A model generated the notes under the pieces. The model had not been told where the DNA came from. It ran no database searches and was given only the letters and a program-made list of their open reading frames with translations. Positions 6,960 to 58,783 of a stretch of DNA of 64,000 nucleotides are shown here, one piece after another (position 1 is the first letter of the stretch; each line of letters begins with the position of its first letter). The translations under genes and the position numbers were made by a program. Origin of the DNA: Eukaryota sp. GEM-RC1 (Eukaryota); assembly GCA_040285855.1 (NCBI GenBank), contig JAUFOQ010000004.1:2108001-2172000 (forward strand), given 5' to 3'.

Positions 6960-9900
6960 CTACAAACGGAAGAACATCTTAGCAGCATTCATAGCTAAAT
7001 CAACAACACTAAACTGCTTCAACCTATCCTCCAAAGACTGCTTCAAAGCAACTGCCGAGTCACCCTTATTCTTCAACTCAGTATTTAAATGAGTAATAAC
7101 TGATTGGAAGAAGTGGAGTGAAGCAAAGAGCTCATGTTGATCCAAGACAATCAAAACATAGACCAATCCCAAAGCAAATCCATCATTTACAAACAAACCA
7201 CGTGTAACAGCACGTGATCGACCTTTTCTCATCATGAGCTTTTCTGTTTCGACCTGCATGTGTTCCACATGAGAGAGGATTAGAGCGGGTGCAAGTAAAA
7301 GAAGTTCTTCATGTGAACATTCTTGTCAGATCGAAGTTCAGAGGTGAAAACTTGTGACAAAAGACCAAGATAATTAGAATCTGATGAGAAATTCTCATTT
7401 AGATTTTCAAGACAAGCTCGAAGTAATTGAACTGCCTCTTTCGAAACAGCAGTCAAATTTGATTGATCATCACACGCTTTGAAAAAATCATCAATCTCTT
7501 CTAAATTCGGAATAAATTGAACTGTGTGAGCAGTATGAGACAAAGATCCACTTCTCAACAACCTAACAAATCCCAAAGCATTACCAATTTCACAAATCAA
7601 TTCTCTAAACTTGTCAAAGAAAGAAACACCATCAGGAGTCCTACCCAGAGCTCTAGCATCACGAAGAATAACTTCAGCATCTTTGAGTAAGAATTGAGCT
7701 TCTAGAGTTCCTTTTTCTTGTAGAGTGTTGGTCCAAAGCTTGTTAGCTCGAAGTAAACGTGATTTGATGTGATCGTCGTACAGGAATTGAGAGACTAGCA
7801 ATAACTTCTTAGCTAAAAAGGTGTAAGTAAAGTTGACCGTTGAGTGAACAATACCAATTCCATGACTTCTGATTGAGTTAGAAGCTTGTTCAATGGTAAT
7901 CACATTGACGTTTCTCTTGGCAGTGTCAATCTTTTCGACAAAGTACTGTTGATGAAGGTCGTAGTTGAACTTGCGAACAAAAGCATTCAAATGTCGGACA
8001 ACATTTAAAATATCTAAACCACTGTCGACAGTTCCATAAGGCAAAAAGGAAGGTGTGATCTCTACTCCAAATCGTTGTTGAGCGAAGTTGGCCATTTGAT
8101 TGTAGGTTTTGAAATCATGAAGGGAAATGGCAACTAAGTCGTAAAAGAGCTCAGAAAGATGACGTTCGACTGTCCGCTTTAGATTGAAATCTTCTTCAAA
8201 CACTAAAAGGTCAGAATAATGAGAAAGCACGTCACCAATTGATTGAGTGGAGAAGGCATTCTTCTTCTTTCCATCATGGGAAACCATAGATCGATGACCC
8301 ACTAAAGTAGAGTTCAGAGTGGCGACTCTGATTCTAACAGTTTCCTCAATGATTGTACTGATTGGTTTGGTGATGTGAGTGACTATCGACTGTTTTACAT
8401 CAGTTTTGAGCTCTTCAATCAGTTTTGATCGTTGAGCTTCATTGAGATGAGGAGCTTGTTTCAAAAGGTCAACTGAAGGCTGTAGACCGATCAAAAAGCC
8501 ACGCAGATATTTGATCTTATCCGGAACTAAACAAGCAATCACCGGATCGACAATCTCTCTAACAGATAGTATAAAATCAAGATTAGAAAAACAATCAACA
8601 CACGACATCAAAGTCATAAACGTTCCCAATTTAGCAAGTGCTGATCTCAACTCTCCATAATCAGAAACCTGCTTCGCAATCACATCACTCAAAAACAACG
8701 ACACCACAATCTCCTTTGGTCCTACAATTCCATTCATTACCTTATCTAGAATGAAACTTGCTGCATACAACTCCTCCCTTCCAGCTGGAGGTCTAGCACC
8801 CTTTCCCCTTGCTGACTTTAACACAGGACCAACACAGTTCTCAGCAATGAAGGTTCGAGATAAACCATTGATTGAGAAGTGTAATAGGTAAGAGATACGT
8901 GATGAATGACGACGGAACACGTTTGCTACGACTGAGATGGAGTTGAACAGAGCGGCGGTGAGTGTGAGCACTGTTCTAGGCATTGGTTGGGAAAGGAAAG
9001 GGTATATCAGAATTGAGGTAGTTAGAAAGTTTCTGGCATTGTAGAGGAAACTTATACCCTTGATTATGTCGTTTTCGACACTTTCCAAAAGAGGATCAGA
9101 ATCACGTAACAGGTCAGAAAACTTTTGACCCCATACGGCTATATCAAAATTGAGCTTGTCCATGCACTGTGATAGTAGTGGAGAACTGAAACGGGAAAGA
9201 TGTGACGTGATGATTGTCTGGCATTCCTTGATCGCAGGGTTTGAGTAAGTTTCGTCTTGTGTGAGAGATCTGTAAAGGAAGTGTACAGGCGAGACGGCAC
9301 ACTTTCCGTAAATGTGACACAGGGGGTGGACTTTTGAGCTTCAAGTAATAACTTGACTGACTTGCGTTCATTTTCGAAATCAGTATTGGTGAGTTTTGCT
9401 GATAGGGCAATCAGACACGTGCACGAGAAGAGATCATAGTTGCCGATTGTATCAATTGCTGTTTCAACTGAAATAAACCGGTCAGCGATTGACATCCACG
9501 AAGAATCAAAAAATGATTGTAACGAAACCATGTTTGATGACGTTTCCTCAAGCAAAGCACGTGATATTTTGACCAACTCCGCCAAAAACTTCGAATTCGT
9601 AATATTCAACGATGGAAGATCGAAATTCCTGTTCAAAAACACTAAAAACGACTTTCCTCCCAATACTTCCCCTTCAAACAACGTAATCATCCTAGTTACC
9701 TCCATCAGCTGACTCACAGCTTCTTCTTTGACCTTCTCCTTATCCTCTCCTTCTTGAACTTGCCTATTAAGGAAGAGATAGGGAGTGTTGGAGTGGAGGG
9801 CAAGGGATAGGACCTTTTGATTGAATTGATGTCGTCAGCAACAATGTCATCGACTGAGATGAGCTCGTCAACTGAAGCTAGGATGGACAAGAGCTTTCCT

Positions 9901-10469
9901 AGGAGTCGGTAAGGGTATTTAAGAACAGATTTAGCAACCAGAGGAGCAGCTTTAGGATTGGCTACGAGATTAGCAAGGAACTGAAGAAGGCAGGAAGCGG
10001 TCTCAGTCACTTTCTCAGAGTAAGTGAGAAGCTCTTGGTAGAAAGGAAGGGTACGAGAGAAATCAAGGGCAGCCTCACCTTCTTTGACGTTTGTGCGAGT
10101 GGTTGTCTCGGAAGGAAGACGTTCGATGAGGAGAGAAAGCCGGGGGTAGAAGTAGGTGTGAGCTTTTTGATAGAGAGAGAAGGCAGTATCAGCTAGTTCT
10201 GTGAATTGGATCAGAGGTCTATCCATGGTAATGTAATCGCTGTTGATGAGGTCTTCGTAAGAAATATCTGAAGACTTTGAGTCAGCAAAGGAAACAGACA
10301 GTAAGTTTTGTGTACTAATGGATGGCTTGAAAGAGTGTTCAAAGAGAAGTTTCTCAAACTCGAGTAGTTGTGAGGCGTGTGCTTCCAGAAATACGTTGTA
10401 ATCCTCCTTTTTTAGCTCGCTAGGGACATCATGTACTCCTTCATTAAAGTCTGAATACTCCCAGTCCAT
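6960..10469 (-). CDS. WASHC4: WASH complex subunit 4 (SWIP), split by frameshifts and/or small introns
   Basis: Motifs [65 protein letters not shown] and [17 protein letters not shown]...FASLHFF across ORFs 9714-10490, 9139-9717, 7280-9163 and 6960-7268. ATG at 10469 (MDWEYSDF). Confidence 0.9.
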
Positions 10470-10535
10470 TTTGTAAGGAAGGTTCAACAAAAGTTAATTT
10501 TTGATGAAGAAGTAAACTCTCTTTTCTCCTTACAT

Positions 10536-23289: not shown

Positions 23290-24331
23290 TGGTTGACTGT
23301 ATTCTCCTATTACAAGCCTCATGTAACATTGTACAGCTCAAGCATGACGAACAGTGATCTTAACGAGTTTCTCACCTCATTAACACAATTTAAGATCACA
23401 AGACGAATAATATGCAAGTTTAATGAGCAATGATTTTGTCATATGTCAATCACTGATCTTCTTCGAGTGGATTTAATGAAGGATGATTTGATGATATTGG
23501 AGTCAATTTTGGAAAGAAGAGATGCAAGTGGGCATGTTGATAACATTGAAGAAGAACGTGGACATTTCTGTTTGTTTTTGTAAGTAATCTCCTTTTTCAC
23601 TCACATGTTCAAACAGTTATATTCTTGGGTGGTCAAGGACTGTGATAAAATACTTCTCTACAAAGAAAGCTAAATGAAAAGTAACAATATTCTTTTTTTG
23701 ATCAATATGGTTGTAAGGATATACTATCCTTCTTCTGATCAATGTTCTCAAAGTCCAATTTTCCTATTTGGAAATTTTGAGTGACCTTGTGTCCCTAATG
23801 CCTGCAAATAGATAAAAAAGCCCAGTAACAGAAGTCACCATAGCTTCAGAGACGAAAAAAGCTAAAAGAAAGATATAGAACACTGTTAGTTTACCAAAAG
23901 TCCTGTATATTGAATCGTTAATAAATTACACACAGTTCGCAAGTAATGGTGTCGCCGATTCACTTAGAGAACCAAATAACTAAAAAGCGATTACAATTGA
24001 ATTTCGAACTGAGTTAATTAAGTTCAATTTAGCACAATATTTTTCCATTATAAATTTTTCACCATTCAATAGAGGGTTTTTAGCATTAGACTTGGCAAGC
24101 TTCTGGTTGGAATCATTAAAAACATAATGAGACTTAACATTCGCATTTACTAAAGAACCGTCAAGACCGGGAAACATGACATCATTGTATCATCGCGTCA
24201 GTGTTAACATGAATTGTTAACATCCGTATAATCGAGAAAACCAGCCGAAACTGGTTCTACAAAAGATATTGTTCCCTAAGATCTACACATACATTACATT
24301 AGAATTGGTCTCATGATTTAGAGTCTGAACC

Positions 24332-25619
24332 CAGGCCCTGGAAAAATTGAATTGTCAATACTAATATTTCAATACATTGGTATGAAACATTGATTGGTAC
24401 AATTTAAAACATTTAAACATTGATTGACTCATCATGAATCATTGAAACATTGATTGATATAATGTTCAAACATTGCAACATTGGCCAATTATATTTTGCG
24501 AATTATCCTATTTCACTCAACACTACAAATCGCAATACCAATATACAGCTGATGTAGAAAGCCGTTTTAACATGTTCTTTAAGAACGAAATAAATAACTT
24601 TTGCTATTTCAATTCTTGGTAATATTGGATTTGCTACTGAAAAATTCTTTGATACCTTTTCAAAGTTGTGCCGTGACCATAGGAACAATTTTAATCAGTC
24701 TATTTGGCGCAATCGCATTGTCTTTTCCTTATATAGAAGTTTTCCAAAGTATTTGAATCGTATTCAGGACAAATTGTATCGTGGTAGTTCAAGAGTAGAT
24801 GTGGATCATTTAATATCTTTTAAGTACTAGTTGTTTGTATTTCGTTAATATATAACATAAAATTACTTTAGTTTAAAATAAATAACTTATATGATTTGGC
24901 TGTTCTACTAGTAGTAGTACACTGGTTCGTCAAATTAGTCTCACTAATGAGACTATTTATCTGATGAGACTAATTTCAAGACTTCTTTACCATTGCTTAT
25001 TACTATTCATTGCGAAAAACTATTGATCATTCCATAAAAACTCTCTGAATATTTTCCATTATGTTCGTCAAAAACAGGGTACATTTGAGTGATGATTAAT
25101 TGCTCAAACAGAGTCCACGTCCAACTGCAGCATATCTAGTAATTAATACCATCAGAATTCCAATTATCTTCTCGGAAATACTAACATCAGGGTTGTGAGG
25201 TCGAGGGATGCGTGCTTAAACGAAACCAAACGCTGCAACTATCGGTCATGAAGAGAGACGAGCGTAGTCCTACAAACCAGTGTAGTGGTTTCTAACAAAA
25301 TCCAGTGACATTATTTTGGAACTTTCTGAATTAATGTCAGTGACATTACTTTGGGTTTGGGCTTCCAAAAAAGTTCGTTCGGAATTGATGTCAGTGACAA
25401 TAATTAAGGTCAGCGGTGTAGTAGTTGTGGTAATACTTGAAACATTGAACCAATATTAAACATTGAAACATCGTTTCGACCAATATCTAACATCCAAACA
25501 ATGATTGGTTTCATTTGAAAAATTGAAAAATTGATTGGTTCAATTTGAAACATTGACATTGGCATTGGATAAATACCAATCATTGACATTGGCAATCAAT
25601 TTAATTTTTCCAGGCCCTG
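24332..25619. mobile_element. Non-autonomous TIR element, 1288 bp, CAGG...CCTG ends
   Basis: TIR CAGG(C/G)CCTGGAAAAATT(G/A)AATTG. GTCTGAACC is duplicated at 24323-24331 and 25620-25628. Subterminal AACATTG/ATTGATTG repeats. Confidence 0.9.
24600..24870 (+). mobile_element. Truncated CRE-like RLE C-terminus (family E) nested in the TIR element
   Basis: Translation FAISILGNIGFATEKFFDTFSKLCRDH...WRNRIVFSLYRSFPKY...HLISFKY*. The 56 nt at 24808-24863 match 54997-55052 at 55/56. Confidence 0.8.
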
Positions 25620-26008
25620 GTCTGAACCTTACTTCTCAATTATAGAACAGTTACAATTCAATAAATGTGAAAGTGTTACAGATTGCCCAAACTGGCATTT
25701 CGAATTATGAGAACGATCATCAGGCCAAATCAATGACCGTAAACGCATGTGTAATGACCAATCATAACGAAAAGAACTGTGGGATGTTTTCCCTTGCCAA
25801 GCCAAATCTAAAATTACAGTCCAGGCTTTCAAAATCCTAGGCATATTTATAGAAATTTCTTTTCATTGCTTAGTCAAAACGGGAGATTATTACCTAACTT
25901 GTCAGAAAATAATCTTACAGAATTTTTAAAAGTGAATTTCTGTCAAAATCTTTTCCAAAAGTATAAATACGAAACATTTATTTTTACTGAAGTGAAGTAG
26001 TAGCAGAA

Positions 26009-27990: not shown

Positions 27991-29069
27991 TGTGTATTTT
28001 TAGTGTGAAATAAATTAAAATATTAACCTTTTAAACCTATTTTTTTATGTCATAAATTATCCGTTTATATTCTATATGTTTGGCGTTTTGTTTTGAATGA
28101 TGGTTTTGCTTTTAGCTTGAGTTTCTTGAGTAGACTTCACTTCCAAATGATTACTGCTATCATAATGACCAGCAAAGCTGTTAAATAGACTGAAATAGAT
28201 ACAATACTAGTATGTGGAATTTCAAATTCAAAACGGGAAATTAAAACAACTGAAAATACAAATAACGCATATGTGTTAAAATCACTTACTTCCTTACATG
28301 ATTGATATAGAATCTATACAGTAGTGATTTGTTTTTGTCCCTTTCATCAAACATAACAGTAATCTATAGTGAATATTCAAAAGTTCTTTTTTTTCTCTTG
28401 TCGCTAATTGAAGAGATAGTTTGATTGTGAGGAATATTTGGGAGTGGGATCGACTCAACCAAATGAAATTCCATAAAAGAACATTCTCAAAGAAGTACAT
28501 ATGAACATAAATGTAGTGTTAATAAATTAACATGTTATTAATTTGACACGTAGTTGAAACATCATCTTGTGAAGAAAATTTCGTGTAAGAAAATCTGTGA
28601 GTATCAATCTGAAACTTGTAGGTTACGATTCGTAACTATTCACTCCAACATTTTAATGTTTTTGAAGTGCCCTGGAAACAATTCAGACTTCAGATGATGA
28701 AGAAAGGTTTGTCATGTTATGAGTTTGGTCATTTCATTGTATTTTAAATTTTATTCTTCAATAACAACATGCAAAATTTGATCAGACACAGGAAAGGACA
28801 TCAGTAACTCTTGGTAACTGGGTAAGGTGGATTGAGAAATTGACAAAGTATCTTGCAAATTTGAAATTTGGTTACAATAACATACCGCATTTTCTTGGTA
28901 TTGTTTCAGCTGATAGGCTCAGTGATGTTTCATTCTCAAGTTGCACGGTATTCTAATTGTTAAAGAGAAATGACGTCTTACTGATGAATTAAATGTGTGT
29001 GTGTGTGTTTGAGAAGAACAGAGAGATATCAATACGTCAATGAATCTTTGTTTTCAAATATGTTTATAC

Positions 29070-29275
29070 AAAAAACGGGGTTTATGATCAATCAGTGAAA
29101 TAAATGCATTTGCAGAAGTTAATAACTAACATACACTCACTAAAGCATCTAAACTATGATCCTTCTGTCCATCACCGAACAACTTACCGAAAAATTGAAT
29201 TAAAATATCTATGCATTGAACGAAACAACGCAAACGTTAACCTACTCTACAAAAAAATTTTCATTGAAAACTTAA
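29070..29275 (-). mobile_element. 5'-truncated copy of CRE-like family A
   Basis: Reverse complement aligns to about 1300-1503, including the CCCCG-T6 end. Confidence 0.85.
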
Positions 29276-35272: not shown

Positions 35273-36285
35273 CGATACTGATTGATGACGTGGAAGCAAA
35301 ACCTCCTCACAATGATCGTTTGGTTTACTCTACAAGTAGTCCATGTCTGTCTACGAAGTTACTCGTTATTGTGATGCCAAGAACCTTATCCACACTTGAA
35401 CCGCAACCAACATTAGGTGTTGATACTGGATTTCTCTTCTCTGACGTTGTTTGAATAGATGTATACAATGATTGCAGCTACAAAACAACTGTTTGTTGCA
35501 AATGATTCTCCTTTGGTCTCTTATATAACTTCAAGCCTATTTGATCCCAAAATTTTCATCAATGTTAAGCCTTCTCATGTTCTCATCATGTGGAAAGAAA
35601 GAAGAAATACGGTATTTGTTCTAGTTGTACCTTTGAAAAGAAAATATATATATCTAAAGCTAACTGTAAGAAACTCGAAGACGATCTGTAAATTATCGTG
35701 GTTTAGTACAGGTAACAACTCATACTGGGTACTGATGGATTCGGACAGAGATTGTTTGAGAATAGGATAATGGTGATGATGACATATCAACCAAAACATA
35801 AACAATTAGCTGTGTTCCAATATAGGTGATGTGAGGAAGACACAATCAAAAGTTGTCTTTTGCTTGCTACTGCAGGATCATAACAGTAGGATAACCATAA
35901 AACGATTCGTTGTATACAGATCATCAAAGACCTTAATTCCAAGATGTTGACTGATCATTGCATTAGGTCTAAGTAAGAACAAACACCGGGAAAATCAGCA
36001 GTGAGGAGGGAAATGTAAATTAGAGCTAGTTCTGGAACAAGTAGTAACTATACAAAGCCAGATGGAAGAGTAAAATCGATTCACTAGAAAAAAAAACAGG
36101 CACGGGAATTCTGACAGCTTGTACAAAATGACTAGAAAATCCTTTGAAGCGTTTATTTTACCACCATCACACTAACAACATCTTCTATTCTGTATGTTTC
36201 AGAGCCATACATGTGTTCTTGATACAACTTGCTTGGTTGGGAGTCATTTGAAGCCATTCCATTTTTCAATGTTCTTACTTCAGAC

Positions 36286-36896
36286 ATGCGAACCAAGAAA
36301 GTTACTGAAGGACCCAAACGCTCCAAATCTGGTTATCTCTTTTTCTCAGCGGACAAACGTGAGGGAAGTCAAACGCGATCACCCCGAAATGAAGTCTTCT
36401 CAAATTATGTCTGAGCTTGGCCGTCGTTGGGCTGCACTGTCAGAAGAAGACAAGCTCCCTTATCATAACCTCGCTGCTGAAGACAAGAGCAGATACGAAA
36501 AGGAAAAAGCTGAATTTGGTCCCATCCCATCAACCCGCAAAAGAGTCTCGAAAGACGCAAGTGCAGAGCCCAAGGCTAAACGTGCACCCTCTGCTTACAA
36601 CATCTTTATGAAGGAAAAACGTGCTGAAGTCAAGGAAGAAAAATCCCGAAATGTCTCAAAAGGAAATCATGACCGAAGTTGGCCGTCTCTGGAAAGAACT
36701 AACGGACGAAGACAAAGAGGAATTCAAGGAAAAAGCAGCTGCATTCAAACCTGAACCCAAAGAAACTGTCAAACCCGCTGTGAAGAAACGTCGTCTGCGA
36801 AAGGCTGTTGAATCAGAGGAAGAAGAATCAGAACCTGAAACACATGATATATCGGAAAAGGAAGAGCAATCTGAAGAGGAAGAAGATCAAGAATAA
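36286..36896 (+). CDS. Double HMG-box protein with acidic tail (HMGB-like), two frameshifts
   Basis: GPKRSKSGYLFFS...SELGRRWAALSEEDKLPY; KAKRAPSAYNIFMKEKR...EVGRLWKELTDEDKEEF; EEEEDQE tail. Confidence 0.85.
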
Positions 36897-37054
36897 TCGA
36901 TACCTAGTTTTTTAAATGTTTTGCATAAATGTATTTTTTTGTAATGTGTCTTGTTTCGATTAGACGCAAAATTTCCCAATTAAACACTTGCAACCCTTCT
37001 GGAAGCTCAGCGAAATTGCGATTGTTATCAAAGATAAAAAGAATCGTTTTCGAC

Positions 37055-41731: not shown

Positions 41732-42026
41732 CAGCTAATAGATTACTAATGTCAAACAATGGTGATTTGGTTAGATCACTGGAAGGAAGAATCTAGAATT
41801 ATCTCTTGAACATGAAGGATCTAGATGAAGCTCTCCTCCCAACTTCCACATGCAGTCTACCATTTTCTCTAACATGATCATCTACATGTACCATATAAAT
41901 TATGTTCTTTATAACACCATTGTTACAATAAATTTGAGCATCTGTATGAATTGTCTCACCAATGGCACCACCAAGACCAAAAAGACCAACAAACACACTG
42001 TTAAGAGTAAATTGTTTATGAGTTTC

Positions 42027-42162
42027 ATTTTAATTCAATTTTAGGTAAGTTGTTCGGTGAAGGACAGAAGGATCGCAGTGTAAATACTCTAGTTAGTGTC
42101 TGTCAGTTATTACTTTTTGCAAAAGCATGTATTTTACTGATTAATCATAAACACCGTTTTTT
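42027..42162 (+). mobile_element. 5'-truncated copy of CRE-like family A
   Basis: Aligns to 1368-1503; ends CATAAACACCG-T6. Confidence 0.85.
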
Positions 42163-42618
42163 GATCATATGTAAGTTGGGACGGATTATTAAAAGGAATA
42201 TTAAGAGAATGTTTAAGAATTACACTTAGATAGGATGTATACATTCTGACAACATCAATTATTTGAGCAGCAGATGTTGAAATTCTTGTTGAAGAAGTAT
42301 TGTAGGTCAAAATTTAAAATACAATGAACAAACATACATCAAGGACAAACTTGCTTTCTTCATCAGCAGGTATATGAATTGATTCCAAGCCACTTAAATA
42401 TACACAAACATGTTGAAGGGCGCTTGATGTGATAATTACGAATGGTATGTGACTTATAAGATCAAATGCAAACAATGGTATGCGCTTAGTAAATGACAGA
42501 AACAGTAGTCTTCCTCAGTTTTTAAAGTTAAACTGTGTAATTGATCTATGATAGTGTTCGTCATTGAACGGATTGATAACATCAGATTTGATTTCATTTG
42601 TTCTTTCTTGTTGAGAAT

Positions 42619-44989: not shown

Positions 44990-45420
44990 GTAAATTGAGG
45001 GAAACAAGAAACATCGCAAGTTTTTGTTGAATTGTATTGTATTTACCATATTAAAAACAAGTCCTTTTATGATTTCAAGAGCTCTAGTAGCTCTCAATAT
45101 TTTTTAAGAAGAAAAAGCTGGTGTGAGTTTTAATGGCAATGAATGTTGCTTTAATGATATTGAGTTCAAGTTTTCGTATTTATCTTACTGGTTTTGTTCT
45201 ATAAATATTCTACATTAAAAACAAAAAAATTGATATCATTAAAACAACACTCGTTGCTATCAAATCTTACAACAGCTTTGTCCTCATAAAAGGAACTTAC
45301 AGAAAACGTTAATTGTTTTCCACAGCTACATTGAAGGTCGTTTGACAAATTGAATGGCCACAGAATAAACAACGAAGTCTCATCGTAGTGGTCCATTGAT
45401 GATCATTTAATAATAAACCA
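44990..45420. mobile_element. Two degenerate CRE-like 3' fragments in tail-to-tail orientation
   Basis: + strand CIVFTILK...EEKAGVSFNGNECCFNDIEF and - strand WPFNLSNDLQCSCGKQLT...EDKAVVRFDSNECCFNDINF both parallel the family B C-terminus. Confidence 0.6.
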
Positions 45421-46029: not shown

Positions 46030-46987
46030 TAGACCTTGCAATCGGATCAACTTCGGATCGGATGATCCGATCGGATTTCTCAGATCGGAGCGATTTTCTT
46101 GGTTTTGTTCGGATTCGGATTCGGATCGGATTTATCCTACCAGATCCGAAATATCCGATCGGATTTCTAATGATTTTGATATTGTTGTGGACGCAAAATA
46201 CATCTGATTACTTAACTAATACTAATATAGATTCATTAGTTGGTCTCTTTGAGTCATTCTTTTTTACAAAAGTAATTCCTGTAATTAACTGTATATAAGA
46301 GTTTATTTGCAACAATAAATTAATACATACTAATTAACTGTATTGATCATAAACCCCGTTTCTTTACAAATATTACACGTTATTGAAAACGATTGATTTG
46401 AAAATATGACTGTTGAACATGACTCCTCTCTAAGTTAATTCGGAAACTGCATCTGTTTCAAATGTCTTACTATTCGGATGTAGAAGTCCTCTGGGATTCT
46501 GCTAATCTTCTTTGATTATTGTTCAATACAGGTATCGTCTGTACCATTGTGAAAGACTGTTTCCCCGTGATGGGTTACCTGTGTCCGAAAATAGAGCATC
46601 TTTCAAATGTGACACAATTCAAGTACAGTATTGGTTTTACTCAATTTATGAACAAAACTTGGATTTATGGCCGATGATGGACTTTTCCTTGATGATGACA
46701 ATGAATGTTACTTTTTGACTAATGAATCTTAATAGAATTTTGTTATCCTTCTTTTTTACAAACACCCAGTTCAAAGGACGTCATTTCTTTATGGAACTAA
46801 AATAGTAAGATAAGTGCAACACTGAAAACAGAATCTAAGAAAGGTATTAGATAAAAAGCTGAATCCGATCGGATCTTTCGGATCGGATTCGGATATTGAA
46901 CACCAGGATCCGGATCGGATTCAGATCTCGATCAGTCAGATTCGGATCGGATCGGATTTGAGATAAAAAATCCGATTCCAAGGTCTA
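46030..46987. mobile_element. Non-autonomous hAT-like element, 958 bp
   Basis: TIR TAGACCTTG(C/G)AATCGGAT. Perfect 8-bp TSD GTCAGGAT at 46022-46029 and 46988-46995. Dense subterminal TCGGA/TCCGA repeats. Confidence 0.92.
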
Positions 46988-47085: not shown

Positions 47086-47175
47086 TACAACATTTGTAAC
47101 TACAACATTTGGTGATACAACATTTGTAATGACAACATTTGGTGATACAAAATTTGCAACTACAACATTTGGTAG
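47086..47175 (+). repeat. Six tandem 15-nt units (three 30-nt dimers), consensus TACAACATTTG(T/G)(A/T)(A/G)N
   Basis: tacaacatttgtaac/tacaacatttggtga/tacaacatttgtaat/gacaacatttggtga/tacaaaatttgcaac/tacaacatttggtag. Confidence 0.9.
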
Positions 47176-47201
47176 CTCCAATACGAAAGACTCACCGCCG
47201 T

Positions 47202-50200
47202 ATGTCCACATTGGAATCATCGGAATTACCATCATCTGAATTACCGTCATTAACTGATCTACCACCATCTGAATTACCACCAAAATCACAGGCCTCCATT
47301 ATGTCGTATCCATCGCCAACTCAAAAAGAAATCCATAAAATGGAAGTAAATCTACACACTGAGCCTATCGAACAAGAAATACAAATTCAAGACTTTCTTA
47401 AATCCCCTCTACTTTGGAACAATCTGCCAACTTTTTGTTTAATTCATATTCAAAGTGATTTTGCCAAAAAGAAAGAATTAATGGCAGAAATGTTCAACTT
47501 GTTCAAGAAGATGATGATGACATTGAAACTGTTGAAGGTGAAGCTGAAGATCAATTAGAAGTTAAACGTGATTCTTCTGTTGATCCGATTGTATCAATTT
47601 CTATCCAGATCATTGATCACAATGAGCTAAGTGAAAAACACTTATTTTCATATGGCAATTATGACACTACAAATTTGGATTTATGTACCTTACATATTTC
47701 AAACAGTGAATCCAGAGTATGCTTAAAAACTTCATTTCCTTCATTACTCAACATTGTCCACGATTGTTTGTGAGTTATGACTTTCACTTAGATACATTTC
47801 CCTTTCTTGTATCACGTTGTCAAGTCCTCAAAATCAATACAACGTTTACTTTTCCAGAATTTAAACCCTATATTCCCTTTTGGTTCAACAAATGGTGTAA
47901 GGAAACAACTGTTGGTCCGTTTTTTAGTCTCGATTTGAATGCTGTACTGAAGAATTTTTATGTCTTTACTGGTGGCCGTTTTTTGGAAAATGTTGTTCAA
48001 ATTTTTCTTGAAATGAATAATTTTTCTAAAAATGAAACTGTCAAACGCTTGGAAGATCTTAATCATGACTCTGATCCTGATGAAGTTCAATTGGTCAATA
48101 ATGTCCACAACTTGCATGTCATAATTGACAGTATTAATGTTTTAGTTCCAGACAATCCCAAAGTGAAGGTCGATAAGATTGAAAAGAAATTTGTAAGATA
48201 TTTGGAGAAAGTAAATGAACTTTGGGCCAAGGAATCGACAAGACCGCTATTGTTGATCAACTCAATTCAACAATTACCTCTGATTGAGTACTTGTTGGCT
48301 GACCTATTGGATCCCAAAAAACAAACATTACGTTCAAAGTCACCAATGAAAGTGGCTAAGAAACGACTAGACAATGTTATCATGAAATCCAAGGTTAGAA
48401 TGATTGAATCTCGTGTTAAGAGAGCTCATCAAGTAAGAGTCCGTGGTTCTCTCTTTTGAAGCATTTTTTGTTCATAATTTTCACCATTCGGGTATTTTAG
48501 GTTACATTCAGAAGTTACTGCCTGCTACTGTTCCAAATGTAACTGTTAAGGAAGAATTGAATTCTGATACAGATGAGTCAACTGAAGAAGAAACACATGT
48601 ACATTCAGAGTCTATCGATGTTGCTACTCCTCCTATTAAATTAGAAAATATTGAAGATGCGAGTGATGAACCTGAACCTGACCTTTGGACTAGAATTCAA
48701 ACTACCAAAATTGAATTGCCAGACTGGAAGAATTTTTTTACGTTGAAATCAATGGAACAAGTGTTGTCTATGATGACGATTAGGGACTACAAACTTGTAA
48801 ACAATCAGAATCATATTAGGACTGTACAAGAATCGTTAACAAACATAATTTCTAACACAAATGATGGCTCAACTCAAAATCAGTTTGCTCAACACTTCTT
48901 GATGCATTACATTCCTCGTTTAGAACTAGCTGCTCGATCTGTTGGACTTGATAGGATAGTGTTTCCCAGTAGTCATCGTTTATCTCGTATATTGCATTAC
49001 ATGACTACTGAAATTATAACGAATTACAAGACTAACATGAGTGAACACTTTCACGAATATGTTTTTCAAGTATTTAATTTGGTTACCCTGAAAAAGATAG
49101 ACTTAACAAGCTTACTGATAAGAATCAACGACAAGAGTTGTGTACAAAGCTTAATGAAGTCAGACAGTTGATCATTAATGGGGAAATTTCAAAAATTAAT
49201 TTTCAAGATGTTGAAGTGTTTCCTGATCCCAATTCTATACTGAGTTTACTATTTTTTAACTATTTGTTTACTTTTTTTGAAGGTAAAATGGAAAAAACAA
49301 TCTATTATGCTGAAAAAATAGATCCTTTGAAATTCTTAAGTCATGCAGTGTATTTGAAACGTCTTGTTGAAGACTCTTGTACTGGTGTTACTGCCAATAA
49401 TCCTTTTCCTCTGACCAAATCACTGATTCCTAATCATATCAGATTGGACACTACATGGTTTAAAGAAGTTTATGCATCAGAAATTAAAGGAAGCTATGAT
49501 GACGTTCGAAAAGATATTTGGCACTCAGTTTTGAAACCAAAGGGTCTTCCAAAGTCATTGTCTCATGACTTCAAATACAGTTCTATTTCTACAGATGGAG
49601 TTAGCTGTAGTTTAATAATGATGCGGAAAGATCTGCTTGATGGGAGAGGAAATCCTCATAAGAAGGTGAAAGCAGTTAACTACACAGCTACTGAAAGGTA
49701 CATTGATTCTTTGAGTTCCACAGAAATTCAAAACTTAAATTTGAAATCCAAAAGAATTGTTGCTATTGACCCTAATCAGCATGATTTGATGTACTGTGCT
49801 TCTTTAAAATCTAAGGAGGAAAAGGAAATCGAAGGTTTCGATACGTCAGCCAATCTCAGAAGAAGAAAGATATCTCCAAAATCATCAAAGAAAAAAGGAA
49901 GCTTGAAAAAATTAAAAAAGGAATTGAAGGATTGGAAAGACGCACCAACTATTGACAAACCATTAACTGTCATGTTGAAAAATCGTGATGATTGGAAAGT
50001 ATTCAGATACACTGCTGGGGAACGCAATGCCGATATTAATAAGTCTCCATGGAAAAGAAAAAAACAAAGAAGGAAAGAAAAAGAGCTAAGAGAAAGAAGA
50101 GGAAGCTGGAGAAAATAATAAGACGATACAATCTCTACCGTTTATCTGAATCCGAACGGTTACAACAATATTCTACCCAATTTATTCACAGTCCAGATGA

Positions 50201-51221
50201 CAGACGCATTGACATAAATGGGCAACAAATTTTAGATCAATGGGGCTCTAACTCGCCAGGCAGTAAATCTTGTGATTTGACTCTGTATTGTGCTTTTGTT
50301 CTTGGTAAAGAAATTGCCTGTTCTTTATTACGATCACCCACTACTGATCAAAGAACTACTGAAGGAATTTACGAAGAAAAGTGGTTTAGAAGGAATCGTC
50401 TCACACAGTATTCAAAAAAGGAACGAAGTGAGAAAAACATGCTTCACAGATTTGCTCTCCAGTTTGGTAACCCAGATGAAGTCGTTGTTGGGTATGGAGA
50501 CTGTAACGACACTGCTTTTCGTCGAAGAAGAGGTAAAGCATCGACTGTAAAAGGTGCTTCAATTCGGAAATTATTAAGAAAATTTGGATTTAAAGTGTTC
50601 CTAGTTCATGAATTTAAGACCAGCAAATGTTGCTCTGCTTGTGTTTCCAGAAACGACGAAGGTATCTGTTCCAATCCTGAAAGGATAAAAGTCACTGATC
50701 CTCATTGGAAGAAGAAGTTACAGAAGGAAGCGAAAGAATTAAAAAAGGAAATTATGGAACACAATCAATTAGACAATATTGTGGAGCGTAACTTTGATGA
50801 TGAATGGACCATACAGTTGCCATTATCGAAAGAAAGATTGAAGAGCAAAAAAGTCTCACCATGGGGCTTAGTTGAATGTGCTAAATGTCATGTCCTCTGG
50901 AATAGAGACTTCAATTCTGCTATCAATATTTACAATATTGTAAATGGAACCATTCAAGGTCAAGGTAGACCTGCCATCCTCGAGAGACCAAAATCTCAAA
51001 CAACACCTGTCGTGGATGGCGGGAATACAGATCAGATTCCTAAGAAAAAGACTGTGAGTAAGGGTAAGGGTAAGGTAAAGAGTCCTCCAACAAGTGTCAG
51101 AGGTCCTTACAAGTGTGGTATATGTTCTCAACCTGGACATAACAAAACAACTTGTCCAAATAAGCCTAAGAAAGATGTACCCAAGGACTCACACGTAAAC
51201 CAGAAAGATCAGGAATCTTGA
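47202..51221 (+). CDS. Fanzor1 (eukaryotic TnpB/Cas12-like RNA-guided endonuclease), ~1340 aa after correcting five homopolymer shifts, with N-terminal extension and C-terminal CCHC knuckle
   Basis: Motifs in order: ILHYMTTEIITNYKTNMSEHF, FPLTKSLIPNHIRLDT, ISTDGVSCSL, RuvC-I IVAIDPN (D 49768), FRYT, VVVGYGDC, RuvC-II VHEFKTSKCCSAC (E 50610), CAKC-LWNRDFNSAINI (D 50907), GRP. The start codon is inferred. Confidence 0.9.
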
Positions 51222-51406
51222 ATCTATGAAGTTAGCTCGTCTTAAAAGACTTTGCGAATGAGGATATTTGTCTAATAATTTAGACATTTGTCAAACTGTG
51301 AGTTTTGCTCTATGAGATCATGAAAATGTGAAGGGTTATGCACTTACTAGTATGCATTTGGAATGAAATTCACAGTACGTGTAGATAAGTACAATACTTA
51401 TCTTTT
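51222..51406 (+). ncRNA. Candidate Fanzor omegaRNA / element right-end region
   Basis: Lies directly 3' of the Fanzor stop. Stem-loops at 51239-51250, 51263-51292 (13 bp, 2 mismatches), 51293-51305 and 51383-51403 (9 bp, followed by T-run). Boundaries unverified. Confidence 0.5.
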
Positions 51407-51915
51407 GGAAAATGAACAACACGTATATAGCTTCATTTGTTTATTGCTTAAAAGATTGTTAATCAGATGTAGGTGCTCTAGGTAACCCATGTCTAGAATC
51501 ACGCGCTGAGAATATAACTTCACCATCTTTTCCATGTACTTCCAGTTTTGCTCCAGGACGTTCGTCCCAGTTGATAGCTCTATGAAAGTCATCTAAATGA
51601 ACATTCACTTCTTCATCAATCTCCCAAGCTCGATGTAATCTCGCCATCTTTCTTGAGTTACGACGTAGAGCCTTCGTTCTACCGGCTTTAGGTCTAGTGT
51701 AATGCGTTGGACGAACGTTCTTGTCAACGGTTTGTCCTTTGTTTTGGATACAAAATGTGGAGTTTTTGGGCATGTAGATCACTCAAGGAAAATATGGAAA
51801 GATCAAGAGAGTAGCTCGCAGATATCATTAACAAGATTTCTTGAAAAAGATCAGTTTGGTTTCAAACAGTGTTCGAAAATTTTCCATTTGGACACCACCC
51901 AGGTAACAATTGTAT

Positions 51916-52035
51916 GTAAGTTGTTCGGTGATGGACAGGAGGATCATAGTTTAGATACTTTAGTTAGTCTGTTAGTTATTAATTTCTGCAAATGCATGTA
52001 CAGTATTTCACTGATTGATCATAAACTCGGTTTTT
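51916..52035 (+). mobile_element. 5'-truncated copy of CRE-like family A
   Basis: Aligns to 1386-1503; ends CATAAACTCGG-T5. Confidence 0.85.
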
Positions 52036-54870: not shown

Positions 54871-55297
54871 TAGGGTTGTTAATCAGTTCAGCCCAGTTCA
54901 AACCTCGATGAACTGACTGAACTGATTGAACTGATCAAAATCTGATGTTCAAATCATTATGAATTGATGTTAAACCTTCAATAAAGACAATCGTTTATTT
55001 AATATCTTTTAAGTACTAGTTGTTTGTATTTCGTTAATTTATAACATAAAATCACCGTTCATTAGTAAAAACATTAACAAACCTAATAACAAATAAAAGA
55101 GCTACCTTTGCTCCACGACATGGCTGTTACTTTGAAGCCATGAGTTGACACACACAAGTGATTGGACAGTGTCATCAGCAAGTTTGGGACTATGTTTGGA
55201 TGCAATAGCCCCAGCAACGGAAAACATTCTTTCGGTAACAGCGCTAGTGGGTTGAATCGCAGCATTGCTAAAGAACAACTTTGCCAACCGTGGTAAA
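54871..55297 (-). mobile_element. 3' end of a hAT transposon with transposase C-terminal dimerisation domain remnant, truncated by a retrotransposon insertion
   Basis: End TAGGGTTG with GAACTGA subterminal repeats. ORF 55102-55287 LAKLFFS...PTSAVTERMFSVAG...L...TVQSLVCVNSWL. Confidence 0.85.
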
Positions 55298-55301
55298 AAT
55301 A

Positions 55302-57900
55302 TTTTTTATTATCGTGCTTTTATTGACAACAACATTATAGTGTACATACATCTAATAATCAATATCCTCAAAGTCCAGATTGCCTAACTGGAAATTTTCA
55401 CCTACCTTATCTTCAGAATGTCTGCCAAGAGATAATAAAGCACTAGATACAGAAGTCACCATACCTTTAAAGATAGCAAACACGATTCGATTTTTCCAAA
55501 ATCTAAGATCAAAAGTCCTAGATGTTTGTTCTTTTACAATCTTCACAAAGATTTCAAGTAATGATGTTGCAGATTCACCTAAAGAACCGTACAGTGAAAA
55601 TACAAAAGGGTACAACAAGTAATTCGAGTGTGACGTCGGATTCAATAATTTCAATTTAGCACAATATTGTTGCATTTTAAACTTTTTACCAATCAACAAG
55701 GGGTTTTTAGTATTAGATTTAGCAAGTTTCTTGTTGGAATCATTACAAACATCGATAGACATAACATCAGCAATAATGAAAGATCCATCAAGACCAGGAA
55801 ATATGACATCACCACGGCTATTTCCAAACGATTTGTCAACATCTGTATCATCAACTAAACCAGCCAGAACTGGTTCTAAAAAGGAAACTATTTCATAAGA
55901 TTTACACATACAATATACAAAATACTAATATTGTAATTGAACCCTTACTGAATCATGAACCTTACTTCTAAAAGAAATAAAACGCTTACAATTCAATAAA
56001 TTTGTAAGTGTTACAGGTTGCCCACATTGGTATTTCAAATTATGTGGAAGGTTATCATGCCAAATATATGACCGTAAACGCAGGTTTAATGACCAAGAGT
56101 TATCAGCAAGAAGAAGACCGTAAACGTGAGGGATTTGAGTAATCAGATATGAAGCAGAGCTATTAGAAACATCCGTTAAGAAATTTGCAAAAGCGGCATT
56201 TTTTTCCTTGACCATGCCAAGTCGAACATTATAATATAAGCTTTCAAAAATATTTGTGAGTTTCTGTTGTACTTTTTCAGTCAGAACTGAAGATTAGTCA
56301 AACATCATTCAGGTATTTCAGACACAGAATCTGGGAATCACTGAGACCAAACGTCCAAAGGTAATTTGATTAACGCTTCGTTTAAGTCAAATAAGAATTT
56401 ACATGAAATGGGGTTAATAAGTGAAATATCATAAGGAAATCGATTAACAAATTCAAAGATGAAATTTTTTCCACCGCCTAACAAGCAGATTTGCAAAATT
56501 GAAGATTTGGTAAAACCAATACCACCAAAATCAGCAGAAGTAAACAAATGACTTCTAAGTAACGTTGAATCAACTTCTAACAATGCAGCAAAAATATTAA
56601 TCCTCAACTCGTTAAAAGATCTACAAAAGTTCATAGCGATTGAAGGAACAGTAGATCTCAAAAGATGTGAGATTTTTCCGGAGTAGCAAATTTTTAAAAT
56701 GAAAAACTTGATATGTTTTTCAATATCATATGAAGAAATTGTGTTGAGCTCTGAACCAATTTTTTCCAAACCATTAGATAATTCTTGGGAAATTTTAGGA
56801 ACATTCCCAAGCCAACAACCGAGAAAACGAAAAGCGTCTTAAACATAATTGATAAATGGAATCTGAACTCCATTAATAAATAATTCTTTTGTAGATCTAC
56901 CAATTAATAAACATTTTTCTGGGTTCAGAGATAAACCCAATGTTTCATAAATATCAGCCACTTCCACAGCTACCTGTTTTAACAAGTCAAGGGGACCAAT
57001 AATAGAAATATCATCCATATAGCCAACTATCTTAAGGTCTGGGTATTTTTTTTAAAATGCACAAAAGCGAATCATGAATAGCTAAACAAAAGAAAAGAGG
57101 ACCAAGAGGATCTACTTGTTTACCACCAGACATAGATTTCAATGAATATGAATCATAAATTAAATCGCTTGGTTTTCCATAAAATAAATAAAAGTAGGAC
57201 GTCAACTCAGGAAAGTCTTTTTCAATAGCAGCAAAAACAGATTTACGACTAATTGAATTAAACGCATTTTTGAAATCAAAATAAAAAATGAAATTATCAT
57301 CATGTGAATTGAAAAACAAATCTAATGTTAAGGCAGCAACAGAAGCCCCGTCAATTGTCATAATTCCAAATTGAAATGGAGACAAAAAGCGACCCGCTTT
57401 TTCTACCACTCGATTAAACACAATTGATGCGAATAAACGAAAAATTGATTCTCCAACTGCAATTGGACGGATTCCATCAGGCTTAATTCCGATACCTGGT
57501 TTTACTCAAGCAATAAGTCGAGCAGCAGCCAATTCAATTGGAGGAATAACTGTCAAACAAACCATCTGTTGAGAGTAATTAGCAAGGTCTTTAGAAATTT
57601 CTGGAGCTGCTTTGTAAGCAGTTTTCAACAAATCAAATGAAATGCCTGAAGGTTCAGCTGCTTTACCTTTAAGAAGTCTAGCAATAGCATTTGCAACTTC
57701 AGTTGGGAAAATAGGATTATCAATCCAGAATTGACAAATTTGAGGTTTAACGTACAAAAACTCTGCTTTGGGAGGCACTTTGACCAATTTCTGAACCGTT
57801 TCAGATTTTGGAATAGCCATTGCAGAAGAAAAGATGGACTTAACTCCAGAACCATAAAAAATTGTGGTAAAGAGTCTTATTTAACTTCCAATATTCGAAT
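55302..57900 (-). mobile_element. Long CRE-like non-LTR retrotransposon (family B): RT, CCHC, RLE, AATAAA and A-rich tail; disrupted
   Basis: GIRPIAVGES, FDFKNAFNSISR, KQVDPLGP, GYMDD (~57015), QCGQPVTLTNLLNC, RGDVIFPGLDGSFIIADV. The 5' boundary is approximate. Confidence 0.9.
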
Positions 57901-58254
57901 GGATCAGCATTTGTCTCTTCTGGATCCAAAACTGCTTCCGCCAAGTAACAGTCCAATTCTACTTTGGCCTGTTCTTTGGTATCCTCGATTGGTACGTCAG
58001 GTTGACTTATAGGTTGAGATTGTATTCTTCATTTAGTTCCTTGATTCAGAAAAGCAGTCCATTTTGTTTAAACAAATATCACGTAGAAATTTCTTTTGCT
58101 TTCCTGTCTTTATGTAACACAGTTTTTGAGGGTGTTTCTTTTGGAAAGATAAGTTTCTGTTTGTTGGTGTATTTTGTTTGTTGTAGAAAAATTAAATTCT
58201 GTGTTTCTAAGTACTAGTACAATGTAATACTAAAAAACATATCTCTATCTACAT

Positions 58255-58783
58255 CAGTATCCGGAATACCTGTTTGGATATGTTCAACATCTCATCATCA
58301 TCAATCATCTTGTCAGGAAATTATCATGGATTTCACAACGGTCAACAGTTGATGTTTAGAATTCAAGACCATTTTCCAAAAAAATAATTATGATGATTTT
58401 TCTACTCTTGAGGTGGCCGACAAAGGAAAGTATTCAAAGTACTGTCATTTCATTAACCAATGGAAATTTGACAGGTACAATTTTTTGGGTTTCAACCGTT
58501 TGTAATGTCGATGTACGGTAACGTTGGACCAGCTGAACAGGGTCTTTTATCTTCATACGGTTTTGTGTTCTGACTCCATTAGAGTTTTCCATGAAATTTT
58601 TGGTTGATTAGATTAACGGTTACGTTGTTTCGTTCAATGCATAGATATTTTAATTCAATTTTAGGAATGTTGTTTGATGAAGAACAGAAAGATCATAGTT
58701 TAGATACTTTATTTAGTGTCTGTTAGTTACTGTGTTTTCCAAAAGCATAAATTTAACTGATTGATCGTGAAACCTGTTGTTTT
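58255..58783 (+). mobile_element. Degenerate, internally deleted copy of CRE-like family A
   Basis: Aligns to 902-935 and 1035-1500. Confidence 0.85.

Follow-up and report, generated by a model that had tools for sequence, protein, structure and literature searches.

A 64,000-nt window of contig JAUFOQ010000004.1 from Eukaryota sp. GEM-RC1 was analyzed, and all coordinates given here are positions in this window, whose DNA is AT-rich and of a protist type. It contains a copy of a repeated element in which an exonuclease domain resembling that of DNA polymerase delta (Pol delta) precedes a Fanzor1 RNA-guided nuclease (Table 1), a domain architecture that we regard as close to certain. The fusion is shown directly by the open reading frame (ORF) 47710-48459, which crosses from the exonuclease into the Fanzor part and carries 212 unbroken codons upstream of the Fanzor-start methionine at 48346. 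A preliminary description of the locus had proposed an extension of about 380 aa and of unknown fold fused to the Fanzor core, with SELP repeats, an acidic stretch, and an aromatic region. These three features were present at their assigned positions, and both the in-frame fusion and an accessory domain at the Fanzor N-terminus were borne out. The interval 47202-48345 (381 codons), however, is not one ORF, being divided among three frames (47202-47558, 47459-47773, and 47710-48459), the fold could be recognized, and the extension proved considerably longer in fuller copies. The Fanzor core occupies three further frames (48437-49171, 49078-50118, and 50043-51221). For comparison, 209 annotated relatives and sister copies were collected and designated by P numbers (P0003, P0018, and so on).

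Table 1. Features of the Fanzor-bearing copy and its 5′ junction in the window
Feature	Position	Strand	Basis
15/30-bp tandem array adjoining the 5′ junction, probably flanking DNA	47086..47173	.	–
Ser/Pro-rich low-complexity linker with SELP repeats, 5′-truncated polyprotein start	47175..47414	+	tblastn
PolB (Pol delta-like) DEDDy 3′-5′ exonuclease domain, predicted catalytically dead	47415..48308	+	Profile, Foldseek, VIA
ExoI position, Asp/Glu replaced by His/Gln	47445..47453	+	Family alignment with intact relatives, register by eye
ExoII motif, with Thr (47794) in place of the catalytic Asp	47776..47802	+	Alignment with Pfu polymerase and with Pol delta
ExoIII position, Tyr/Asp replaced by Asn/Gln	48259..48273	+	Family alignment, register by eye
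Fanzor1 core (WED/REC/RuvC/zinc-finger TNB)	48346..50990	+	phmmer, PF07282, SpuFz1 alignment, read-through copies
CCHC zinc knuckle, C-terminal	51114..51155	+	PF13696 E 0.039 (below cut-off), sequence, sister copies
Candidate omegaRNA scaffold/right end, weak	51222..51410	+	Three predicted stem-loops

A frame-aware alignment with three sister copies (92-95% identity) located six frame breaks in the window copy. In five of them a single base is lacking from an A or T run (near 47467, 48458, 48466, 49092, and 50054), and at the sixth, near 47718, there are two surplus bases; the exonuclease domain spans three frames, with its breaks near 47467 and 47718. Sister copies were uninterrupted across all five junction regions tested. 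At the first junction four sister proteins read through and three broke, at 48466 six read through and six broke, at 49092 five read through, and at 50054 read-through was found in 4 of the 17 spanning copies, the other 13 being broken; P0018, P0028, and P0040 served as read-through copies for the Fanzor core. Because the sister copies read through and the HMG-box gene in the window carries similar slips (read by eye), the breaks are most likely assembly errors, although they may alternatively reflect decay of the window copy itself. Genuine introns in the window are 26-30 nt long, unlike the break regions, and introns were rejected as the cause: candidate GT-AG spans exist, yet the sister copies are collinear across the breaks. 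An obligatory −1 ribosomal frameshift at 50054 was also rejected on the counts above, a systematic homopolymer error being preferred there because four copies read through; an optional frameshift may occur. The HMG-box gene (36176-36900) and a WASH-complex-like gene (6960-10493) are both conserved and both frameshifted in the window, which makes calls at the ORF level unreliable for this assembly.

The extension domain is a DEDDy 3′-5′ exonuclease of the family-B DNA polymerases (PolB) and is Pol delta-like. The window ORF alone gave a weak hint of PF03104 (E 0.033), and PF03104 clusters scored 0.90 and 0.85 in the ESM Atlas, values that were used as leads only. In the read-through copies PF03104 rose above the Pfam cut-off (P0010, E 8e-8). 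A profile of 12 family sequences matched 78 sequences in the PDB, with yeast Pol delta at the top (E 7e-11), and every one of the matches listed (60 of 78) was a family-B polymerase or an engineered form of one. When a model of the window-family domain was searched with Foldseek, Pol delta was again the top match (3iay, E 1.2e-6), and in a VIA comparison with 48,161 chains the first 16 rows were all family-B polymerases, with Z up to 11.9 and human Pol delta aligned over residues 307-529 at Z 9.8. The AlphaFold model of this domain had a mean predicted local distance difference test (pLDDT) score of 52, with 60-90 in the core. No match to the polymerase domain PF00136 was obtained in the window ORFs or the family proteins scanned.

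In the window family an acidic insertion follows ExoI, and all four acidic residues of the exonuclease are lost: Asp and Glu of ExoI are replaced by His and Gln, Asp of ExoII by Thr, and Tyr and Asp of ExoIII by Asn and Gln. All 17 family proteins in which ExoII is present carry its replacement. A residue-by-residue alignment with solved polymerases was made for ExoII only; for ExoI and ExoIII the register was read by eye from family alignments. From these replacements the window-family domain is predicted to be a catalytically dead pseudo-nuclease. At least four dead subfamilies, mutually 31-45% identical, were retained in the window lineage and share W..W...GPF and GGR.L.NV segments. Since the dead domain was kept across subfamilies this divergent, continued selection is suggested, the constraint being read from one whole-family comparison.

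The family is dispersed and not confined to one organism. Pieces of the locus matched 90%-identity protein clusters of 26, 18, and 11 members on many contigs, and the members listed (15 of 18 and 15 of 26) are labelled Eukaryota sp. GEM-RC1 by NCBI. Copies in the assemblies of the two organisms are represented by the NCBI proteins KAL0225525.1, KAL0227451.1, KAL0237921.1, KAL0246494.1, and KAL0249641.1. A word-based search for near relatives returned four clusters from the same organism, a second one with the intact exonuclease region returned only two clusters, both from Eukaryota sp. TZLM3-RCL, and a third, weak search with the C-terminal ORF gave no match. A scan of viral contigs gave no match. 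Eight loci from a metagenome scan (25-27% identity, ORFs of 812-1259 aa) were rejected; they resemble ordinary PolB, and none of the eight matched the Fanzor profile. An HMMER search with P0018 gave 248 matches, and among the best 150 the exonuclease was present in eight (six from GEM-RC1 and two from TZLM3-RCL), while 73 proteins of at least 550 aa were without it, one of these being a family fragment.

In the second organism, TZLM3-RCL, the proteins P0057, P0197, and P0209 are continuous (1473, 1479, and 1491 aa; clusters of four and six) and contain, in order, a 2A peptide, a linker, the exonuclease, and Fanzor1 (PF07282), without Ulp1 and without the CCHC knuckle. PF03104 reached E 5e-13 in P0057, and ExoI, ExoII, and ExoIII were intact in 4 of 4 proteins (P0057, P0197, P0199, and P0209), where ExoII was matched to yeast Pol delta one residue at a time and the other two were assigned by motif and position. 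ExoI and ExoII were also intact in P0097, which belongs to a separate family of the same organism. In both the window family and the intact relatives, the ExoIII position lies 25 codons ahead of the first WED strand (by eye); in the model of P0198 the ExoIII Asp is residue 17 and the first WED strand begins at residue 42 (register by eye). Further divergent exonuclease-Fanzor subfamilies are P0055/P0203, P0063, P0082, and P0044/P0047 in GEM-RC1, besides P0097, and across the divergent subfamilies the exonuclease motifs grade from intact to fully substituted. In a quick maximum-likelihood tree of 82 REC-to-RuvC-I segments, including 72 ordinary Fanzor1s, with midpoint rooting and exonuclease-only fragments left out, the fused Fanzors of both organisms (five GEM-RC1 and five TZLM3-RCL rows) formed one clade with SH-aLRT support of 99. 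The simplest reading would be that the fusion arose once, long ago, and that inactivation came later in one of the lineages.

These data bear on the possibility that the exonuclease is a captured piece of a host or viral PolB, carried as decayed cargo without a role in Fanzor function. The loss of all four acidic residues and the 20-21% identity between the window family and the intact relatives across the domain would agree with such decay, whereas both organisms retain the frame, the fold, and the distance of 25 residues to WED, the motifs are intact in two families of the second organism (the P0057 type, and P0097 for ExoI and ExoII), the divergent dead subfamilies preserve their two shared segments, and no polymerase domain follows Fanzor in any collected protein. 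We consider decayed cargo unlikely, although it is the strongest of the alternatives.

The Fanzor core was identified by phmmer matches to SpuFz1 (E 5e-8 and 1e-4), by matches to PpFz1 and GtFz1, and by PF07282. Its RuvC triad is intact (D 49768, E 50610, and D 50907) and aligned to D383/E541/D606, the RuvC residues of SpuFz1 (PMC10432273). The Fanzor1 motif D-X(125,275)-[TS][TS]-X-X-C4 zinc finger-X-RD was recognized, with the RuvC-II Glu just ahead of the zinc finger and E 50610 followed by TS and the zinc-finger cysteines; its spacings exceed the published ranges owing to inserts in the window family. The Fanzor part of the relative P0198 was modelled with pLDDT 78.8 and a predicted template-modelling score (pTM) of 0.77, and its template-modelling (TM) score to SpuFz1 was 0.78. 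In a Foldseek search with this model the top seven matches were Fanzor1 proteins (E 2e-16 or better), compared with E 0.013 for the Fanzor2 structure 9b0l. The fold test used this relative, and the window protein itself was judged by sequence.

The preliminary description had raised the possibility of a domesticated or repurposed protein, that is, a host gene making new use of Fanzor. The large accessory domains, basic stretches resembling nuclear localization signals (by eye), and an ORF without a transposase would be compatible with this, and the earlier statement that no transposase motif was recognized was borne out. The check that it named, co-occurrence of the domain with other Fanzor copies, was made, and the domain was present in the sister copies and in the second organism. 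Dozens of near-identical dispersed copies, several subfamilies, 5′-truncated copies, and the intact RuvC triad speak against a host gene. A dispersed multicopy family with an intact triad fits a recently mobile element, and we consider domestication very improbable.

Downstream of the stop codon, three predicted stem-loops form a candidate omegaRNA scaffold with a z of −2.3, two of 200 shuffles being equally stable; the coding stretch 50900-51049 scored lower in the same folding scan, and Rfam gave one irrelevant sub-threshold match only for the candidate. An omegaRNA runs 14-15 nt into the flank and needs a defined 3′ end, which raises the alternative that the exonuclease trims the omegaRNA precursor to guide length and that its dead version binds the guide end. 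DEDD nucleases trim other small RNAs, the DEDD RNases ERI1/3′hExo share the fold (Z about 6 in the VIA comparison, vs. 9-12 for polymerases), and the DEDDy domains of Terminons were proposed to process RNA or single-stranded DNA 3′ ends (PMC6431247). The nearest relatives of the domain, however, are proofreading domains of DNA polymerases, both in the 60 of 78 profile matches listed and by Z, and most Fanzor1s lack an exonuclease domain. RNA trimming is a doubtful explanation, placed third among the alternatives.

The window copy lacks the N-terminal part of the protein. When P0003, P0010, P0052, P0206, and P0207 were compared with the window by tblastn, the match began at 47175, and P0006 (2A and Ulp1) had no match in the window. 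Because homology to the fuller copies ends at 47175, the copy is 5′-truncated; the upstream part with 2A and Ulp1 is missing, and the protein of the element does not begin at the ATG at 47202. The fuller copies of GEM-RC1 (P0003, P0010, P0052, and P0207) contain, in order, variable tandem repeats, a 2A StopGo-like peptide, one or two Ulp1 domains, a linker, the exonuclease, and Fanzor1; a CCHC knuckle closes the polyprotein. P0207 holds 2A, Ulp1, exonuclease, and Fanzor REC in one protein, and P0018 and P0028 each run from the exonuclease through RuvC-I. The N-terminal extension measures about 850-1050 aa in these copies, and the whole polyprotein is estimated at about 1800-2000 aa by joining overlapping copies.

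A D(V/I)ExNPGP 2A motif with upstream helix-forming residues was found in 11 of the 209 proteins, all of them family members (10 canonical, one with Pro replaced by Leu), and represents a putative StopGo site. The tandem repeats upstream of it are unrelated to one another (P0003 1-190, P0207 1-140, and P0209 1-90, with units of 33 aa, 38 aa, and about 25 aa) and may be exchangeable promoter-like 5′ arrays. The Ulp1/SENP protease domain (C48; PF02902) scored above the cut-off in P0002, P0003, P0010, P0052, P0206, and P0207. Its His/Asp/Cys triad was read by eye, as was a replacement of Cys by Ser in the second copy of P0003/P0010, and the domain is missing from the window and from the full-length proteins of the second organism. 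P0003/P0010 carry two tandem Ulp1 domains and P0052/P0205/P0206/P0207 one divergent Ulp1, while their exonuclease regions are near-identical, which suggests module swapping.

This polyprotein resembles those of long interspersed nuclear elements (LINEs), and the element could be a LINE-like non-autonomous retroelement in which Fanzor nicks the target, the exonuclease prepares or holds the 3′ primer, and the reverse transcriptase (RT) of an element without long terminal repeats (non-LTR element) copies the RNA in trans. An N-terminal 2A ahead of a nuclease and a ubiquitin-like protease have been reported from non-LTR ORF2 proteins (PMC13405545), Ulp1 occurs in NeSL and Utopia (PMC4640811), and the CCHC knuckle, the variable 5′ tandem repeats, the 5′-truncated window copy, and RT remnants in the window would also fit. 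Counts within the same organism drop from 3′ to 5′ as well (clusters of 26 and 18, 17 proteins with ExoII, and seven with 2A), but fragmentation by frameshifts and differences in search depth confound this trend, and the Helitron2-borne Fanzors CRe-1/2/3 are also 5′-truncated (PMC3627910). Moreover, neither a poly(A) tail nor a target-site duplication (TSD) was seen at the window copy, and an RT domain is absent from the complete P0057 and P0209 and from the other family proteins scanned. We hold this retroelement to be improbable, second among the alternatives. The same rating applies to its broader form, a transposase-free and RT-free element with a LINE-like polyprotein that would spread by RNA-guided target priming, Fanzor acting as the endonuclease, the Pol delta domain trimming or clamping the 3′ primer, and a borrowed RT or a host polymerase copying the element.

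On balance, we lean toward the reading that the copy in the window is truncated, that its element is multicopy and likely mobile and joins the Pol delta-like exonuclease to Fanzor1 in one polyprotein, and that the exonuclease serves homing repair. Under the restorative homing model, a cut made at the empty site is mended with the chromatid that carries the element as template (PMC13565253). StopGo at the 2A-like peptide would free the protein from the variable upstream repeats, and Fanzor, guided by RNA that comes from the element's 3′ end, would cut the empty site as TnpB does. In the case of SpuFz1, cleavage of the non-target strand follows base 16-17, counted from the target-adjacent motif (TAM; PMC10432273). 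A Fanzor1 cut would leave the TAM-side strand ending 16-17 nt into the right-flank sequence, a 3′ tail that would mismatch the element-bearing template, where the element follows the TAM. Being unpaired with the template, the tail would have to go before synthesis, and the exonuclease tethered 25 residues ahead of WED would trim it, so that synthesis copies the element back. The proofreading activity of yeast Pol delta clears away heterologous flaps no longer than 20 nt (PMC10622511). The dead domain of the window lineage likely just binds or shields the 3′ end; usefulness as a binder would be in line with results on engineered MmeFz2, in which active exonuclease fusions impaired editing and DNA-binding fusions improved it (PMC12923547). 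The Ulp1 domains might alter SUMO/NEDD8 marks nearby, and the enzyme excising or moving the element would act in trans.

Several observations weigh against homing repair or against parts of the case for it. Restorative homing was shown for TnpB and IscB, not for Fanzor (PMC13565253), and catalysis is lost in the window family even though it has the higher copy number, which means that trimming is not indispensable. No transposase was found in the element, and a search for terminal inverted repeats and TSDs around the window copy, which is 5′-truncated, gave only chance-level 7-10-mers. The omegaRNA signal is weak (z −2.3), the exonuclease model is poor past residue 189 (pLDDT below 50), and the ExoI and ExoIII registers were set by eye. 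The tree was a quick version computed without bootstrap, and the read-through proteins are automated gene models, some of which may hold false introns, for instance at a 17-aa gap in P0003.

Other repeats surround the element. At 46030-46987 lies a hAT-like non-autonomous insertion that has terminal inverted repeats of 9 bp, is flanked by a duplication of 8 bp, and contains many TCGGAT repeats in subterminal position; its end is about 190 bp upstream from the 5′ junction of the Fanzor element. On the minus strand, a hAT dimerization domain remnant (55102-55302; PF05699, E 6e-9) and a decayed non-LTR retrotransposon (55352-58000; RVT_1, E 1e-5; related pieces at 375-1268 and 23700-25800) were found. 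The latter is a possible RT source in trans, but nothing ties either remnant to the Fanzor element. A dispersed repeat of about 190 bp with 76-95% identity occurs at 1315-1504, 29066-29260 (minus strand), 41974-42163, 51907-52035, and 58594-58783, the Fanzor stop lying about 700 bp upstream of one copy. An imperfect inverted repeat of about 190 bp, resembling a miniature inverted-repeat transposable element, was located at 45102-45291, with 59-nt arms that are 81% complementary.

Fanzors often carry extra domains (PMC10530073). Full-text searches, with supplements, subscription papers, and Repbase outside their scope, found no published description of a Fanzor-exonuclease or Fanzor-Ulp1 fusion. 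The word "exonuclease" occurs 0 times in the papers PMC3627910, PMC10711439, and PMC13565253, and "Fanzor" and "TnpB" occur 0 times in the available portions of 10.64898/2026.09.24.754024 and PMC13405545. Transposon-borne DEDD exonucleases and Fanzor1s are already known, and the natural fusion of a PolB exonuclease to Fanzor1 appears to be new, as no report of it was found. If restorative homing applies, the cut should carry a short 3′ tail without homology, and this family fuses to Fanzor the kind of domain that yeast uses on such tails; with live and dead natural versions available, a direct test of the homing model is possible. For editing, an application in which artificial exonuclease fusions to a Fanzor2 lowered activity, the family provides a fusion of exonuclease and RNA-guided nuclease that evolved in nature. 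Its 2A and Ulp1 modules make the distinction between Fanzor DNA elements and LINE-type polyproteins less sharp. If the improbable RNA-guided target priming were true, the element would be the first retroelement known to be driven by a Fanzor, and prime editing would have a natural counterpart.

The nuclease part of the element is that of known Fanzor1s (SpuFz1 8GKH, PpFz1 9CF0, and GtFz1 9CER), with the same rearranged RuvC, the D/E/D triad, the Glu ahead of the zinc finger, and the same fold by the P0198 model, and it shares with them multicopy loci without a transposase (Bao and Jurka 2013, PMC3627910; Saito et al. 2023, PMC10432273). Unlike them, it has a PolB exonuclease of roughly 300 aa directly ahead of WED and a 2A peptide, to which the GEM-RC1 family adds one or more Ulp1 domains and the C-terminal CCHC knuckle, and no inverted repeats above chance level were found at the 5′-truncated window copy. 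Compared with about 600-850 aa for Fanzor1, the polyprotein measures about 1480 aa in TZLM3-RCL and is estimated at about 1800-2000 aa in GEM-RC1. With the Pol delta exonuclease (3IAY, 6S1M; PF03104) the domain shares the fold and the order ExoI-ExoII-ExoIII, with motifs intact in the second organism. It differs from Pol delta in having no polymerase domain, in its acidic insertion after ExoI, in its RNA-guided nuclease partner, and in the four replaced acidic residues of the window family.

Among mobile elements, 3′-5′ exonucleases proposed to process 3′ ends are carried by Dada (DEDDy within the transposase, PMC3706591), KolobokD (DEDDh, PMC9587614), and Terminons (DEDDy, PMC6431247), and Cas2-DEDDh (8FYC) is likewise a 3′-5′ exonuclease partner for which 3′-end processing was proposed. 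These enzymes have been described as DnaQ-, TREX-, or ERI-like and partner a transposase, RT, or integrase, and none is fused to an RNA-guided endonuclease. The non-LTR ORF2 proteins (2A in L1Tc/Ingi/CR1/L2, Ulp1 in NeSL and Utopia) share the 2A before a nuclease, the protease, the zinc knuckle, and 5′ truncation, but the window element has neither RT nor an apurinic/apyrimidinic (APE) or restriction-like (RLE) endonuclease, and a tail or TSD was not seen. Exonucleases tethered to RNA-guided nucleases are also known from TREX2-Cas9, T5-Cas12f, and TREX/T5-MmeFz2, but these are engineered, and the exonuclease fusions to Fanzor2 impaired editing (PMC12923547), whereas the fusion in the window family is natural and polymerase-derived.

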